DNA of 60,814 nt, taken from the NCBI GenBank assembly GCA_944384585.1, contig CALWTY010000006.1, forward strand, positions 1-60,814, written 5' to 3'. Numbering within the stretch: position 1 is the first letter of the stretch; each line of letters starts with the position of its first letter. The translations under genes were made by a program, and so were the position numbers. Below are positions 13,544 to 60,814 of the stretch, in pieces. The stretch comes from an uncultured Clostridia bacterium. Its GTDB lineage: Bacteria > Bacillota > Clostridia > Oscillospirales > CAG-272. The notes beneath the pieces are model-generated. The model made no database searches. It saw nothing but the letters and a program-made list of their open reading frames with translations, and had not been told where the DNA came from.

Positions 13544-14974
13544 ATGAGTAATTTGAAGGAAGAATGCGGCGTATTCGGAATATATGCGGGAGAGACCTGC
13601 GATCTGGCCTCCGACGTCTACTGCGGACTGTTTTCGCTTCAGCACCGCGGGCAGGAGAGCTGCGGAATCGTGATCAATGACGACGGGCTCTTTACCGCCT
13701 ACAAGGACAACGGGCTGGTGAACGACGTCTTTTCCCCCGATCGGCTTGCGGCGCTCGGCAACGGAAATATTGCGGTCGGACACGTCCGCTACGGGACGAC
13801 GGGAGGCAATGCCAGAGAAAATGTGCAGCCGATCGTGGTCAATCACATCAAGGGCAGAATGGCGCTGGCGCACAACGGCAATCTCGTCAATTCCTATGAG
13901 CTGCGCTCGGCGCTTGAGTTGGATGGCTCCATCTTCCATACCACAAGCGATACCGAGGTGATCTCTTATATCATCACAAAGGAGCGCCTCAGCGCGCCGA
14001 CCATCGAGGAGGCGGTCAACCGTGCGATGAACCGCATTGCCGGCGCCTATTCCCTTGTGATGATGTCGCCGCAGAAGCTGATTGCCGTGCGGGACGAAAA
14101 CGGCTTCCGCCCCCTCTGCTACGGCAAGACCCCCGACGGCAAATACGTCGTCGCCTCCGAGAGCTGCGCGCTTGACGCGGTGGGAGCGACGATGATCCGG
14201 GACGTCGAGCCGGGGGAGATCGTTATCTTCGACCGCAGCGGTGTCAGGAGCATCCGCGATCATTGCGGGAAGCGCAAGCCCTCCCTCTGCGTCTTCGAAT
14301 ATATCTATTTTGCGCGCCCCGATTCTGTCATCGACGGCTGCAACGTTCATGCCGCACGCTCAAGGGCCGGGGCGTTTCTGGCGCTGGAGCATCCGGTTCA
14401 GGCCGATATCGTCGTCGGCGTGCCCGATTCCGGCATCGACGCCGCCATCGGCTATTCCAAGCAGTCGGGCATTCCGTATGAAATGGGCTTTGTCAAGAGC
14501 AAGTATATTGCCCGCACCTTTATTGCGCCGGGACAGAAATCGCGGGAGAGCAAGGTCAAGCTGAAGCTCAACCCGATCTCCGAGACGGTAAGGGGCAAGC
14601 GGGTGGTGCTGATCGACGACTCGATTGTGAGAGGGACGACCAGCGCCCGCATCGTCCGGCTTCTGCGGGAGGCCGGCGCGAAGGAGGTCCATATGCGGAT
14701 CTCCGCGCCCCCCTTCCTCAACCCCTGCTATTACGGGACAGACATCGATTCCCGAGAGAATCTGATCGCCTGCAGTCATACCGTGAAGGAGACGGCTGAG
14801 ATCATCGGCGCAGACAGCCTCGGCTACCTCAGCGTCGAGAGCGTGCGGAAGATCGCCAGGGGCATGGAGGAGGGCGGCTACTGTACCGCCTGCTTCAGCG
14901 GGGAATACCCCACCGAGATCCCGAAGGAAACCAACAAAAACCGCTTCGAGAGAAAGATTTCGGACTCTCAATGA
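13544..14974 (+). CDS. purF: Amidophosphoribosyltransferase
   Basis: EECGVFG, QHRGQE, DDSIVRGTT, Fe-S cysteines. Confidence 0.97.
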   Translation: MSNLKEECGVFGIYAGETCDLASDVYCGLFSLQHRGQESCGIVINDDGLFTAYKDNGLVNDVFSPDRLAALGNGNIAVGHVRYGTTGGNARENVQPIVVNHIKGRMALAHNGNLVNSYELRSALELDGSIFHTTSDTEVISYIITKERLSAPTIEEAVNRAMNRIAGAYSLVMMSPQKLIAVRDENGFRPLCYGKTPDGKYVVASESCALDAVGATMIRDVEPGEIVIFDRSGVRSIRDHCGKRKPSLCVFEYIYFARPDSVIDGCNVHAARSRAGAFLALEHPVQADIVVGVPDSGIDAAIGYSKQSGIPYEMGFVKSKYIARTFIAPGQKSRESKVKLKLNPISETVRGKRVVLIDDSIVRGTTSARIVRLLREAGAKEVHMRISAPPFLNPCYYGTDIDSRENLIACSHTVKETAEIIGADSLGYLSVESVRKIARGMEEGGYCTACFSGEYPTEIPKETNKNRFERKISDSQ

Positions 14975-56907: not shown

Positions 56908-58035
56908 TCAGGAAATACTGATCTCGACGCCGTTGACCTCCACGACGCCGTCGGCGCGGATGAGAATGAATTTCTGCCCGTCGATCACCCGTGTCTCGAT
57001 CAGCCCGGAGGCTTCGGGGGAGAGGCGGATGCAGACGTCGGGCGTTTTGACCTCAAGGCGGCGGGGATCGATGAGGTTTGAGGGATGGATCTCCGCCTTG
57101 CTGCCGAAGGCCCGGTCAAAATTTTCTTCAAACGCCTCGATCCGTCCCTCGTCGACGCCGCAGCTCTGAAGAACCTCCCCGACCGTGGTCTTGGAGATGA
57201 CGACAGGCTCTGGATCCTTCAGGGCCTTGTGTTCTTCCATGATCCCGGTGAGCTTTTCCTGCACCGAGCAGACCACCTCCAGGCTGCATTCGTCGGAGAC
57301 GGCGTCGCGGAGCAGTGTGCCGAAGCTGTGCTTCTGCTCGGCGGCAGGCATCGGCGGGGCAACCTTGAACAGCGCTTCGATCAGCTCGGCGTGATTGTCG
57401 GCGGTGTTTTTGGAATAGTAGAGAGCATTGTAGATGTTGGAGGTTCTTCCGTCAAAGGCGGGGAAAATAAAGCCAAGCTCCGGCGGTGCGATCACCCAAT
57501 CGGGCGTGACGTTCCGGAAGCGGTTTTCCGGGATGTAATAGCCGAGCGCGGCGCGGGTCATGCGGATCGGGCAGATGCAGCAGAGAAAATAGGAATAAAC
57601 CGAGGAGGAATCCTCCGCCTTGCTGCCGTCGGAGGAATAGGAGGGGACATCGTAGCGGTCGGCAGCCAGCAGGATCAGATAGCTGCCCTCGATCACAAGC
57701 GATTCTCTGATGATGTCGAACAGCTTGCCGACGGCTTCATCGTCCGAGAGGGCGGAGTTTTTCAGCGCCGTGAGCAGCCGATGCTCGTCGCTGTCCAGCA
57801 CCTGATTGTTGGTGAAGGGGATGTCGAGGAGGTTTTTGCCGGCTGTGCCCGACAGGGTCTTTTTGAGGACGGCGAAAATTTCCTCCGTCTCCTCTGCCGA
57901 CATCAGCGCGACCGATTGGTCAAATCGGGAGAGAATTTCCTTTTTTTCGTTGATATAACAGCCTCGGATTCTTGTGATATTGCTCTTATCGACGCGAAAG
58001 CGTCTTTTGATCTCGGATATTTCTTTTTCGTTCAT
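56908..58035 (-). CDS. DUF4317 family protein
   Basis: MNEKEISEIKRRF, KKTLSG..GKNL, GFIFPAF..R...I, VEVNG; promoter TTGAGT-N17-TATAAT (58125-58097). Confidence 0.82.
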   Translation of the reverse strand: MNEKEISEIKRRFRVDKSNITRIRGCYINEKKEILSRFDQSVALMSAEETEEIFAVLKKTLSGTAGKNLLDIPFTNNQVLDSDEHRLLTALKNSALSDDEAVGKLFDIIRESLVIEGSYLILLAADRYDVPSYSSDGSKAEDSSSVYSYFLCCICPIRMTRAALGYYIPENRFRNVTPDWVIAPPELGFIFPAFDGRTSNIYNALYYSKNTADNHAELIEALFKVAPPMPAAEQKHSFGTLLRDAVSDECSLEVVCSVQEKLTGIMEEHKALKDPEPVVISKTTVGEVLQSCGVDEGRIEAFEENFDRAFGSKAEIHPSNLIDPRRLEVKTPDVCIRLSPEASGLIETRVIDGQKFILIRADGVVEVNGVEISIS

Positions 58036-58171: not shown

Positions 58172-58200
58172 TTGACAAAGCGCCGCGGTTGTGATATAAT
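58172..58200 (+). promoter_or_regulatory. Consensus sigmaA promoter of the tRNA pair
   Basis: TTGACA-N17-TATAAT, extended -10. Confidence 0.88.
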
Positions 58201-58220
58201 ATCCTCCGTTGCAGGGAAAT

Positions 58221-58309
58221 GCCGGAGTGGCGGAACAGGCAGACGCCCGGGACTTAAAATCCTGTGATACGAAAGTATCGTACCGGTTCGAGCCCGGTTT
58301 CCGGCACCA
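58221..58309 (+). tRNA. tRNA-Leu (TAA)
   Basis: Cloverleaf, anticodon loop CTTAAAA, long variable arm, GTTCGA, encoded CCA. Confidence 0.95.
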
Positions 58310-58337
58310 GATTTTTTCTTTTGTTTCAATATCATAT

Positions 58338-58414
<77 letters not shown>

Positions 58415-58445
58415 ACAAGTAGCACCGAAAAAGATATCGGGGCTG

Positions 58446-58682
58446 AAAACCCAGAAACCACAACGGTTTCTGGGTTTTTTCATGCCGATTTTTAAGGTGG
58501 AATTCAAAAGATATCATTTCCCCAAATCGACCTTTGGGGAGGACTTGAACTAAATTCATAGGGTTTTAGGGGCAGATTTTACGATTGATTTCGTAAGGTC
58601 TGCCCCTTTTTTCGTTTTTCTAATTGTTAAATGTTTGTGTTCTCGGAGGTTGCGCATAAATTGTATGCGCAACCTCTTTTTT
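58446..58682 (+). terminator. Cluster of four hairpins, three followed by T-runs
   Basis: Stems at 58446-58478, 58519-58540, 58568-58607 and 58646-58676. Confidence 0.75.
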
Positions 58683-58845
58683 CGTATATAGCGCATTTTG
58701 AGCGTTGATATAAATCTGATAACGAAAGACTAACTATTAAAAGTCAAGTCCCAATTTCGAGATGAAGCAGAAAAGCTCCTGCCGCAAAATAGCATGACAA
58801 GTAGAGCGTCGCTGGCGGCGCTCTGAAAAAAGATTGTCGTGGTTG

Positions 58846-60021
58846 TTAAGCTGACTGTCTATATGGTTGTTGGGACTTCTCCATGGCATAGATCAATCGC
58901 AAAAGTTTCTTGGCAGCATGAGATATGGCAACGTTGTAATGTTTCCCCTCGGTTCTCTTTTTGGCGAGATAGGCAGCGAAAGACGGATCCCAATGGCAGA
59001 CATACTTGGTTGCATTAAAAATGGCATAGCGCAGGTATTTGGAACCACGTTTCTCCATGTGGGAATAGCAGTTTGTAAGCTGTCCTGACTGGTAGGTAGA
59101 CGGTGACATGCCGGCATAAGCCAGAATCTTATCGGCAGAATCGAAGTTGGAGAAGTCACCAACCTCAGCCAGAATCATAGCTCCCATTCGGGTGCTGATG
59201 CCAGGAATTGTAGTAATAGGAGAGTGAATTTCATCCATTATGGAATTGATTTCTTTCTCAATTTCTTCAATCTCCCCATCTAACTCCCGGATGAGCCGAA
59301 TGGTATGCTTCAACTCCAGGGATTTGGCGGGCATTCTGGAGCCGATGGAGTTTCTGGCAGCATCCCGAATCTGAACTGCTTTCTCCCGGTCATAGCGGCC
59401 TTTAGAAGCATCTGACAGCACGGACTTCAAGTGAGTCAAGTGTGCGGTAGAAATCTGATGTGCTCCGGGAAACTCGCTGAGAAGTGCATAAACAGAAGCC
59501 ATATGAAGTGTTGGCACCAACTTTTCCAGCTCTGGAAACAAAATACAGACCAGCCGGGAAACAGAGCATTTCAGCTTTGCCCGCTCACGAATTTTGTCAA
59601 ATCTATATCTTGTTAGTGACTTTAGCTCTTCGTTGTGATATGATGTATCTGTGTAGGGCTTGAGGTCCACATCAGACATGAGCATAGTTGCGATGGTTCG
59701 TGCATCGATCCGGTCGGTCTTGGTTTTGCGAAGGCTCAGACTTTTCCGGTACAGGTTGGTGTGCAATGGGTTTATGACATAGGTTGGCAGGCCACAGTCA
59801 AGAAGGAACCCAAGAATGTTGTAGCTGTAATGTCCGGTAGCCTCAAGGCCTACTTTTATTTTATCTGCCGGACGAGTACAGCGGCGAATGGTTTGCAGCA
59901 GGATGCCAAAGCCTTCTGCGTTGTTAGGAATGGTGAAGACATCTGCCAGGACTTCACCTTCCGAGCTGAGGATGAAGCAGTCGTGCTTGTCCTTAGCAAC
60001 ATCGATACCCACACAAATCAT
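58846..60021 (-). CDS. IS110 family recombinase/transposase
   Basis: DEDD RuvC-like motifs GIDVAK, LEATG, KTDRID; C-terminal domain TIPGI, YQSG, KRGSKYLR; RBS GGAGG. Confidence 0.96.
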   Translation of the reverse strand: MICVGIDVAKDKHDCFILSSEGEVLADVFTIPNNAEGFGILLQTIRRCTRPADKIKVGLEATGHYSYNILGFLLDCGLPTYVINPLHTNLYRKSLSLRKTKTDRIDARTIATMLMSDVDLKPYTDTSYHNEELKSLTRYRFDKIRERAKLKCSVSRLVCILFPELEKLVPTLHMASVYALLSEFPGAHQISTAHLTHLKSVLSDASKGRYDREKAVQIRDAARNSIGSRMPAKSLELKHTIRLIRELDGEIEEIEKEINSIMDEIHSPITTIPGISTRMGAMILAEVGDFSNFDSADKILAYAGMSPSTYQSGQLTNCYSHMEKRGSKYLRYAIFNATKYVCHWDPSFAAYLAKKRTEGKHYNVAISHAAKKLLRLIYAMEKSQQPYRQSA

Positions 60022-60044
60022 AAGGAATACCTCCGGTATGTTTA

Positions 60045-60246
60045 TTTGATGCTGGTTCCACAGGACACTTTACTCTTGTAACCTTGTTCCACATAAACCG
60101 TCTGGCGGTATCTAACTGATTAACAATACTGTAAAGGGCTGTGGTTGGAGCCTTTCGTAAACCATCTTGTGGTAGGAGGAATGAACCAATCCACAGCATC
60201 CCTTACAGTGTAGCACATGTCCTTGGAGAGGGACAATAAAAACTAC
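60045..60246 (-). ncRNA. Putative IS110 bridge RNA (ends approximate)
   Basis: Long stem (60128-60148 with 60186-60209) enclosing an internal loop whose strands match the insertion site; a second region matches the element-end junction. Confidence 0.75.
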
Positions 60247-60273
60247 TACTCTATAATACAAGGAGTGGTGTAT

Positions 60274-60330
60274 ATGATTGTGGCGCAGCTCAGCAATTCA
60301 AAACAAAATTCAGGAGGTAAAGAAAGATGA
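60274..60330 (+). CDS. Putative 18-aa micro-ORF overlapping the DUF4314 start
   Basis: AAGGAG 8 nt before ATG; MIVAQLSNSKQNSGGKER*; ATGA overlap. Confidence 0.35.
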   Translation: MIVAQLSNSKQNSGGKER

Positions 60331-60623
60331 ATGATTGGGAACGATTACACAGACAAGCCGAGAGATATAAACAGTCATATCCCCCGGGAACAAGAGTAAT
60401 GCTGCTTAATATGAACGACCCATATTCTCCCGTTGAAAGCGGTATGCGCGGAACGGTTCAGAGTGTGGATGATATCGGTCAACTCCTAATGAAATGGGAT
60501 AATGGCAGAGCGCTTGCGCTGATCCCCGGCGAAGACTCATTCCGTCGATTGACACAGGAAGAAATCGACCGGGAGTTACAGGAACAAGCTCAGGAACAGA
60601 CTATCAGCGAACAATCTATGTAA
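60327..60623 (+). CDS. DUF4314 domain protein
   Basis: YPPGTRV..MNDPY..GTV..VDDIGQ..WDNG..L.LIPGEDSF; RBS AGGAGG. Confidence 0.85.
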   Translation: MNDWERLHRQAERYKQSYPPGTRVMLLNMNDPYSPVESGMRGTVQSVDDIGQLLMKWDNGRALALIPGEDSFRRLTQEEIDRELQEQAQEQTISEQSM

Positions 60624-60659
60624 ATGTGAGGTGAAGCAGAAAAGCAGGACGGATGCCCT

Positions 60660-60814
60660 ATGGCAATCCCATTCATTGATTTGTGTTCGGGTATCGGCGG
60701 CTTTCATTCCGGACTCGTAAATACAGGTCATTACAGATGCGTCGGTCATGCAGAAATTGATAAGAACGCAGAAAAAGCGTATAACGCCATTTACGGAGAA
60801 GAAGGAGGTTTGAA
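60660..60814 (+). CDS. DNA cytosine-5 methyltransferase (N-terminal part, cut by the window edge)
   Basis: MAIPFIDLCSGIGGF...AEIDKNA matches motifs I and II; not in the supplied ORF track. Confidence 0.8.
   Translation, partial: MAIPFIDLCSGIGGFHSGLVNTGHYRCVGHAEIDKNAEKAYNAIYGEEGGL

Follow-up and report, generated by a model that had tools for sequence, protein, structure and literature searches.

The minus strand of positions 58729–60262 in a 60,814-nt stretch of DNA from an uncultured Clostridia bacterium (here the window; contig CALWTY010000006.1 of assembly GCA_944384585.1) very probably holds an IS110-group insertion sequence in a single intact copy, with a mechanism like that of IS621 of Escherichia coli. 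In line with the IS621 literature, the element would excise as a circle, and a junction promoter, formed only when the ends are joined from a −35 hexamer of the right end and a −10 hexamer of the left end at 17-nt spacing, would then transcribe a bridge RNA and probably also the recombinase gene. Recombinase tetramers would hold the target through the left and right target guides (LTG and RTG) of this RNA and the donor junction through its left and right donor guides (LDG and RDG), exchanging strands at a CT core dinucleotide. Circle formation, transcription and RNA-directed recombination of the element are predicted here from homology and from covariation among relatives. The ends, the CT core, the donor and the junction promoter had been proposed in an original prediction from the letters of the window; the predicted bridge RNA is an addition of this analysis.

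Boundaries and recombinase gene

The boundaries were established from an orthologous empty site and from the homology limits of related copies (Table 1). The empty site was found in a genome of another genus of the same family (G027, contig C14), where the sequences matching the two flanks of the element (98% identity over 58600–58728 and 94% over 60260–60400) lie directly next to each other, sharing 3 nt. In the alignment this site is ...GATAAC-T-AAAG-GAGTGGTGTATATG..., which corresponds to the empty allele expected from the original prediction, with a single AG on the plus strand, save one substitution (T for G at window position 58724). IS110-group elements lack long terminal inverted repeats and are bounded by a core dinucleotide that is single in the empty site. 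Their non-coding left end exceeds the right end in length, the IS1111 group showing the reverse order (Durrant et al. 2024, PMC11208160); here the left end measures 241 nt (60022–60262), or 239 nt when the core copy is not counted, and the right end 117 nt. Relatives were collected by scanning one genome per species with the protein as guide, which yielded 80 loci (L numbers below) with proteins 76–91% identical to that of the window, mostly from Oscillospiraceae and other Clostridia. Left-end matches begin at left-end base 1 in 70 of the 77 loci having such a match and right-end matches stop at the last right-end base in 50 of 51, and the flanks of related copies differ from one another, with no outside DNA shared between them. 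The empty site and the related copies thus bore out both the predicted ends and the CT core.

The 391-aa open reading frame (ORF) between the ends matched the N-terminal DEDD RuvC-like domain PF01548 (5e-42; 143.8 bits, cut-off 29) and the C-terminal Tnp domain PF02371 (1.4e-21; 77.1 bits, cut-off 21.3), and is full length, because relatives match residues 1–391. Its closest solved structures were the ISCro4 transposase 9t56 (E = 9.9e-20) and the IS621 transposase 8wt6 (E = 1.8e-19). Residues D7, E60, D103, D106 and S312-G313 align with D11, E60, D102, D105 and S241-G242 of IS621 (chain numbering offset 2), the catalytic residues named by Hiraizumi et al. 2024 (PMC11208158). The two-domain organization and all five catalytic residues expected of an IS110-group recombinase were therefore present, in agreement with the intact catalytic motifs claimed originally.

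Table 1. Features of the element and its surroundings, in window positions (position 1 is the first letter of the 60,814-nt stretch).
Feature	Positions	Strand	Remarks
Whole IS110-group element	58729..60262	−	1534 bp including left-end CT core copy, 1532 bp between cores; from empty site and relatives' homology limits
Right-end-side CT core copy (AG on plus strand)	58727..58728	−	One AG in empty site, two in occupied site; CT at both ends in all relatives listed
Left-end-side CT core copy	60261..60262	−	From sequence, empty-site alignment and relatives
Non-coding right end (RE), 117 nt	58729..58845	−	Between ORF stop codon and boundary
Recombinase/transposase gene, 391 aa	58846..60021	−	Catalytic D7, E60, D103, D106, S312; Pfam and alignment to IS621 chain 8wt6_A
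GGAGG ribosome-binding site of recombinase gene	60030..60034	−	
Junction promoter −35 hexamer, TTGACT	58742..58747	−	Kept in relatives
Junction promoter −10 hexamer, TATTAT	60253..60258	−	Kept in relatives
Predicted bridge RNA, left-end positions ~17–195	60068..60246	−	5′ end inferred from −10, 3′ end from last conserved stem
Bridge RNA 5′ stem-loop (left-end positions 17–53)	60210..60246	−	Pair columns 108/121: CG 36, UA 15, AU 15
Target-binding loop module (TBL; positions 66–125)	60138..60197	−	Distal pair columns 177/185: AU 35, GC 33; hypervariable loops
Donor-binding loop module (DBL; positions 127–195)	60068..60136	−	Basal stem CUUUAC/GUAAAG, double changes 17 and 30 at two pairs
Left target guide (LTG), AUUCCUC-CU	60174..60182	−	Compared with LT + core
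Right target guide (RTG), ACGAA-AG, then handshake GC	60150..60158	−	ACGAA-AG at 60152–60158, GC at 60150–60151
Left target half (LT), ACCACTC	60263..60269	−	Shine-Dalgarno region of flanking plus-strand small ORF
Right target half (RT), TTCGTTA	58720..58726	−	First 5 nt + core complementary to RTG
Left donor guide (LDG), AGUUAGAU	60110..60117	−	First 6 nt = LD positions 1–6
Right donor guide (RDG) core, ACAAG, then GU	60081..60087	−	ACAAG at 60083–60087, GU at 60081–60082; complementary to CT-TGT
Left donor half (LD), AGTTAGT, terminal 7 nt	58729..58735	−	Covaries with LDG and target-loop handshake base
Right donor half (RD), TGTATTA	60254..60260	−	Positions 10–14 same as IS621 donor
tRNA-Leu	58221..58309		
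tRNA-Met	58338..58414		
DUF4317 protein	56908..58023	−	5.2e-126
DUF4314 protein	60327..60623	+	6.5e-31
Start of C5 cytosine DNA methylase	60660..60812	+	4e-09

Predicted bridge RNA and donor guides

An alignment made in this analysis from the window and 67 non-identical related left ends (67 of 69 after dereplication; locus L052 was left out here and in the donor counts) gave an RNAalifold consensus of 38 pairs, 7 of them with compensatory changes, such as GC in 35 and AU in 30 sequences at one pair. The consensus consists of three modules of the IS621 type, matching the fold of IS110-group bridge RNAs, in which a 5′ stem-loop is followed by the target loop and then the donor loop (PMC11208160), and the first internal loop is the sole hypervariable part of the left end. 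In a fold of the single left-end sequence, CCCUUUACAG was paired to the region preceding the target loop on its 5′ side; this fold was dropped, because family covariation favours a basal donor-loop stem formed by CCCUUUACAG and GUAAAG. In L052, a GC-rich, unrelated sequence replaces or interrupts the donor-binding loop region (after ~base 137), and the remainder of the left end lies ~1.6 kb off; this copy is probably disrupted.

The donor of the window copy itself is AGTTAGT-CT-TGTAT, and AGUUAG of its LDG equals positions 1–6 of the left donor half (LD). Among relatives, the base at donor position 6 (G or A) is tracked by the LDG base and by the second handshake base (C or U) in 56 of 59 elements: GC accompanies donor G6-T7 in 37 and GU accompanies A6-T7 in 19, with three exceptions. 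This agrees with the handshake-base concept, in which the bases after the RTG pair with donor positions 7 and 6 (PMC11208158). On the other side of the core, an RDG base (A or G) tracks donor position 10 (T or C, that is, CT-T against CT-C left ends) in 70 of 70 elements. The first candidate for the RDG, UUACAAG at left-end positions 183–189, is the 3′ strand of a donor-loop stem and was rejected because it is unchanged in the 14 CT-C elements, whereas AACAAG/AACGAG changes. The IS621 donor bases named by Hiraizumi et al. (dA6, dT7, dC8, dT9, dT10, dG11, dT12, dA13 and dT14; PMC11208158) spell CT-TGTAT from dC8 to dT14, so that the right half given in the original prediction was correct and is the same as positions 8–14 here.

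Target guides

In the window, the LTG and the left target half (LT) with core, ACCACTC-CT, are identical at 6 of 9 positions and compatible at 8 of 9 when U-G wobble is allowed, and the RTG ACGAA-AG is an exact complement of CT-TTCGT (7 of 7). Across relatives, guides fitted their own flanks better than shuffled ones did: the LTG agreed with its LT at a mean of 5.18 of 7 non-core positions against 3.46 after shuffling (maximum 3.95; 60 unique pairs of 61), and the RTG agreed with its right target half (RT) at 4.67 of 7 against 3.31 (maximum 3.82; 49 pairs), with 0 of 10,000 shuffles reaching the observed value in either test. Positions 6–7 on the right side were at chance, indicating that the RTG reads five bases and the core. 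L045 (CT-GTCGGG in both guide and flank) and L034 (CT-TAATC in both) were clear cases; poor fits were also present, for example L019 and L037 (right side), and the flank of L039, taken at a partial upstream left-end copy, was scored as a poor match. The first internal loop thus behaves as the target-reading loop of a bridge RNA. The recombinase had originally been called a candidate active, programmable enzyme; the intact catalytic residues support a candidate, while programmability is suggested by natural guide–target covariation across relatives, with function assigned by homology.

Three further observations concern the target guides. At L039:2674–2760, a partial left end (bases 1–78, ending exactly at LTG + CT) lies head-to-tail with a complete copy; because LTG-coding DNA resembles a left target half, this arrangement may represent insertion or half-site recombination into the guide region of another copy. 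A near-identical copy in metagenome run X3 (see below) carries four changes in or beside the LTG (60178 and 60181–60183), with which the LTG would fit 6 of the 7 positions of the X3 flank. The case may reflect natural retargeting but, guide and flank being on separate contigs, was not counted as evidence. In the empty site of G027 (C14, ~13938–13945), right-target position 3 is A, not C, and the RTG reads that base; the site may be unoccupied because it makes a poorer target, or because the element never reached it.

Copies elsewhere and mobility

Sampled 31-mers of the stretch occurred in 22 public runs (12 studies), for the most part metagenomes of animal gut or faeces; four of these runs (X1, X3, X6 and X15) were examined, all as contigs. 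These contigs hold near-identical DNA, at a closeness beyond that of the related-copy collection, in which no protein exceeds 91% identity. The X1 contig is identical to the window over 58722–59847, and the X3 contig differs by one substitution and one indel over 58724–59845. In X1, X3 and X6 the match ends at 58722–58724 and at 60263–60265, beyond which different flanking sequences follow. The presence of a near-identical element at other sites suggests recent mobility, and the intact element is probably still mobile. Three skip joints in X6 were set aside: their sides measure only 21–23 nt and they probably belong to other family members. The plasmid collection contained one distant match (69.9% identity), annotated 'IS110 family transposase' without an element name.

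Several points weigh against an intact copy that works like IS621. The element is single-copy in its own 2.29-Mb, 95%-complete assembly and so gives no sign of recent activity in this host; no circle or back-joint appeared among the contigs of the four runs, which would rarely show one; and the LTG of this copy is identical to its target at only 4 of 7 non-core positions. The LDG lacks canonical pairing to donor position 7, where A faces T, and to the core C, where U faces C; in IS621, all guide pairings include the core (PMC11208160). No Rfam family matched the left end in a search of 58200–60814 (Rfam 15, E ≤ 1), which returned only the two tRNAs and a chance rli40 hit, and the single-sequence fold of the left end was not unusually stable compared with shuffles (z = −1.42). 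The RNA-library run X15 covers only 58724–59635 and short pieces and may hold DNA, the start, ends and expression of the bridge RNA being predicted. The guide shuffle tests take no account of kinship among elements, and the conserved −35 hexamer may serve donor or protein recognition, not transcription, as weighed in the next section. The single copy, the missing circle joint and the imperfect LTG would also be expected of a correctly delimited but immobile relic whose end motifs reflect past function. We consider such a relic unlikely: the full-length ORF retains the five catalytic residues; guides, stems and the two hexamers do not depart from the family consensus; and copies with 0–1 differences per ~1,120 nt occupy other sites in three runs. 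The LTG mismatches, for their part, compare with the 0–2 mismatches to guides that are common in natural IS110 targets (Durrant et al. 2024, PMC11208160).

Proposed junction promoter and length of the core

Joining the ends at CT brings TTGACT of the right end and TATTAT of the left end to the two sides of a spacer consisting of 13 nt of the right end (58741–58729), CT and TG (60260–60259), 17 nt in total, which is the promoter of the original prediction. The two hexamers match the consensus at 10 of 12 positions and are conserved in relatives. Among BLAST-defined right ends, the −35 hexamer is TTGACT in 49 of 50 and TTGACA in one, and the following 13 nt are as in the window for 42 of the 50. 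Of 71 left ends, counting that of the window, 64 have TATTAT as the −10 hexamer and 7 have TATAAT. No spacer indels occurred among relatives. The element thus has, at the level of sequence, the split promoter of the IS110 group. Shuffled sequences contained ~3.5 promoter-like sites (at least 9 of 12 matches) per 2,051 bp on both strands, a rate from which the chance of a 10-of-12 site across one given junction would be ~2%. In the integrated copy, the same scan of 2,051 bp found no minus-strand promoter-like site across the left-end boundary or upstream of the RNA. The premise of the original prediction, a bridge RNA promoter rebuilt in IS110 circles, is stated by Durrant et al. 2024 (PMC11208160), who describe a sigma-70-like promoter rebuilt by the excised ends and driving a ~177-nt left-end RNA; in IS621, RNA-seq shows transcription from the reconstituted promoter, and removal of the −35 abolishes function in cis.

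Conservation of the hexamers could have another cause, namely recognition by the recombinase or the bridge RNA, with a junction promoter that is incidental or weak and transcription starting elsewhere. TATTAT overlaps the right donor half TGTATTA, which is conserved for pairing with the RDG; the terminal 19 nt of the right end as a whole, beyond the −35 hexamer alone, are near-invariant; and short sub-terminal inverted repeats, with ATA...TAT triplets, have been reported beside the programmable bases of IS110-group donors (PMC11208160). This explanation nevertheless seems quite improbable to us. The −35 hexamer lies 14–19 nt from the core, beyond the 7-nt left donor half read by the LDG, and the sequence immediately upstream of it varies freely among relatives. 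The seven relatives with TATAAT have shifted the −10 to a better consensus with the register kept. The lack of another minus-strand promoter-like site upstream of the RNA in the integrated copy, together with the IS621 RNA-seq and −35 removal data, likewise argues for transcription from the junction.

The AAG noted originally at both boundaries (58726–58728 and 60260–60262) was confirmed, its AG part (CT on the minus strand) being the true core and its extra A a coincidence, because the 14 relatives that start with CT-C at the left end continue past the right end, where the flank was recovered, with CT-T or CT-C and show no duplication of the third base. A 3-nt CTT core, to which AAG at both junctions and once in the empty site might point together with a T at the start of 94% of right target halves, has next to no chance, given these CT-C relatives, the RDG base opposite the third position that follows the element's own base in all 70 cases, and IS621 cleavage directly after CT (PMC11208158).

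Insertion into ribosome-binding sites and neighbourhood

The family target ...CTC-CT-TTC... reads GAA-AG-GAG on the other strand. Of 61 insertions with enough flank, 43 have an ATG, GTG or TTG start 8–18 nt beyond the core on the left-end side, reading away from the element and opening an ORF of at least 50 codons; the same test at the same loci was passed by 232 of 831 AGGAG sites and 6,599 of 46,678 AG sites. Three other flanks, those in X1, X3 and X6, also showed a ribosome-binding site, a spacer and an ATG. The window copy occupies the ribosome-binding site of an 18-codon plus-strand ORF (site region 60263–60277), and the left-end terminus together with the core rebuilds AAGGAG. The invariant LTG bases resemble an anti-Shine-Dalgarno string.

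Within the element, an outward promoter-like site on the plus strand (60230–60257; GGGACA, 16 nt, TATAAT; 10 of 12 matches) is the best match of the region and faces the flanking gene. Its −35 falls within a bridge RNA stem that changes compensatorily from relative to relative; the site is therefore no family feature and is probably copy-specific or accidental.

The invariant guide bases of the clade (LTG ...CUC-CU and RTG GAA-AG) correspond to the complement of a Gram-positive ribosome-binding site and to its upstream part. Copies therefore very probably land in GAA-AG-GAG shortly before start codons, the left end by the gene and the recombinase gene reading away, and the variable distal guide bases select which site is used. 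A possible, if doubtful, extension is that RNA guidance brings every member of this Clostridia-wide clade to ribosome-binding sites, and that insertion rewires the transcription of the genes chosen, as the rebuilt AAGGAG, the lost promoter and the outward promoter-like site might suggest. Because the end of the element rebuilds AAGGAG, the gene would keep its ribosome-binding site while losing its promoter, and in this copy it would come to face the outward promoter-like site. Among the papers covered by our literature search, none links IS110 bridge RNA guides with Shine-Dalgarno or ribosome-binding-site targeting.

The 18-codon ORF precedes the DUF4314 gene, which is followed by the C5 cytosine methylase gene; the two may mark the start of a mobile element or prophage next to the tRNA genes. 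Two strong tandem terminator-like hairpins on the plus strand (58568–58607, 17 pairs, and 58645–58677, 14 pairs) lie after tRNA-Leu and tRNA-Met, just before the insertion site.

Discussion

The element is an ordinary, well-built member of a family already known to work in this way, and it leaves the known mechanism unchanged. It shares with IS621 (structures 8wt6 to 8wt9) the DEDD + Tnp recombinase with the same five catalytic residues, the CT core with an identical right donor half CT-TGTAT, the −35/−10 promoter split across the joined ends, a bridge RNA in a long left end with 5′ stem-loop, target loop and donor loop, and handshake bases after both the RTG and the RDG. It differs in its distant protein, which aligns in two blocks and has 391 aa as against the 326-residue IS621 domain map, in its left donor half, in the absence of canonical LDG pairing at donor position 7 and the core C, and in the RTG, which reads five target bases and the core here and four bases in total in IS621. 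The hosts here are Clostridia-type gut anaerobes and the targets ribosome-binding sites, whereas IS621 targets REP elements. The ISCro4 transposase (PDB 9t56), compared by protein sequence only, was the best solved-structure match, aligned over the same two domains and is equally distant.

The element also resembles related Clostridia copies (Oscillospiraceae, Lachnospiraceae and others; L015–L094) and a 1,563-bp record from Monoglobus pectinilyticus (H1) that carries an 'IS110 family transposase'. With proteins 76–91% identical, these have the same terminal sequences, promoter hexamers and RNA structure, each with its own distal LTG and RTG bases and its own flanks.

Mycobacterial IS110 elements of the IS900/IS901/IS902 type are reported to insert in a single orientation, after a ribosome-binding site and before a start codon. 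They belong to a different phylum and are likened to the present clade by behaviour, not by sequence. Their hed ORF is host-expression-dependent and lacks its own ribosome-binding site and start codon (PMC8141618). Our literature search found no reading of the IS900-type ribosome-binding-site preference in terms of bridge RNA guides.

Taken together, these results contribute one natural bridge recombinase, annotated in full, from Gram-positive gut bacteria that are strict anaerobes; the system could enter the standard two-plasmid recombination assay directly, because its ends, core, donor, target, four guides and handshake bases have been placed to the base. The family alignment provides independent natural-variation support for guide–target and guide–donor pairing and for the handshake bases, both of which are published ideas. 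Guides fixed on ribosome-binding sites throughout a clade offer a simple RNA-level explanation for the insertion preference long noted in some IS110 elements, and if the rewiring proposed above is true, the element would rewire the transcription of chosen genes, not just disrupt them.

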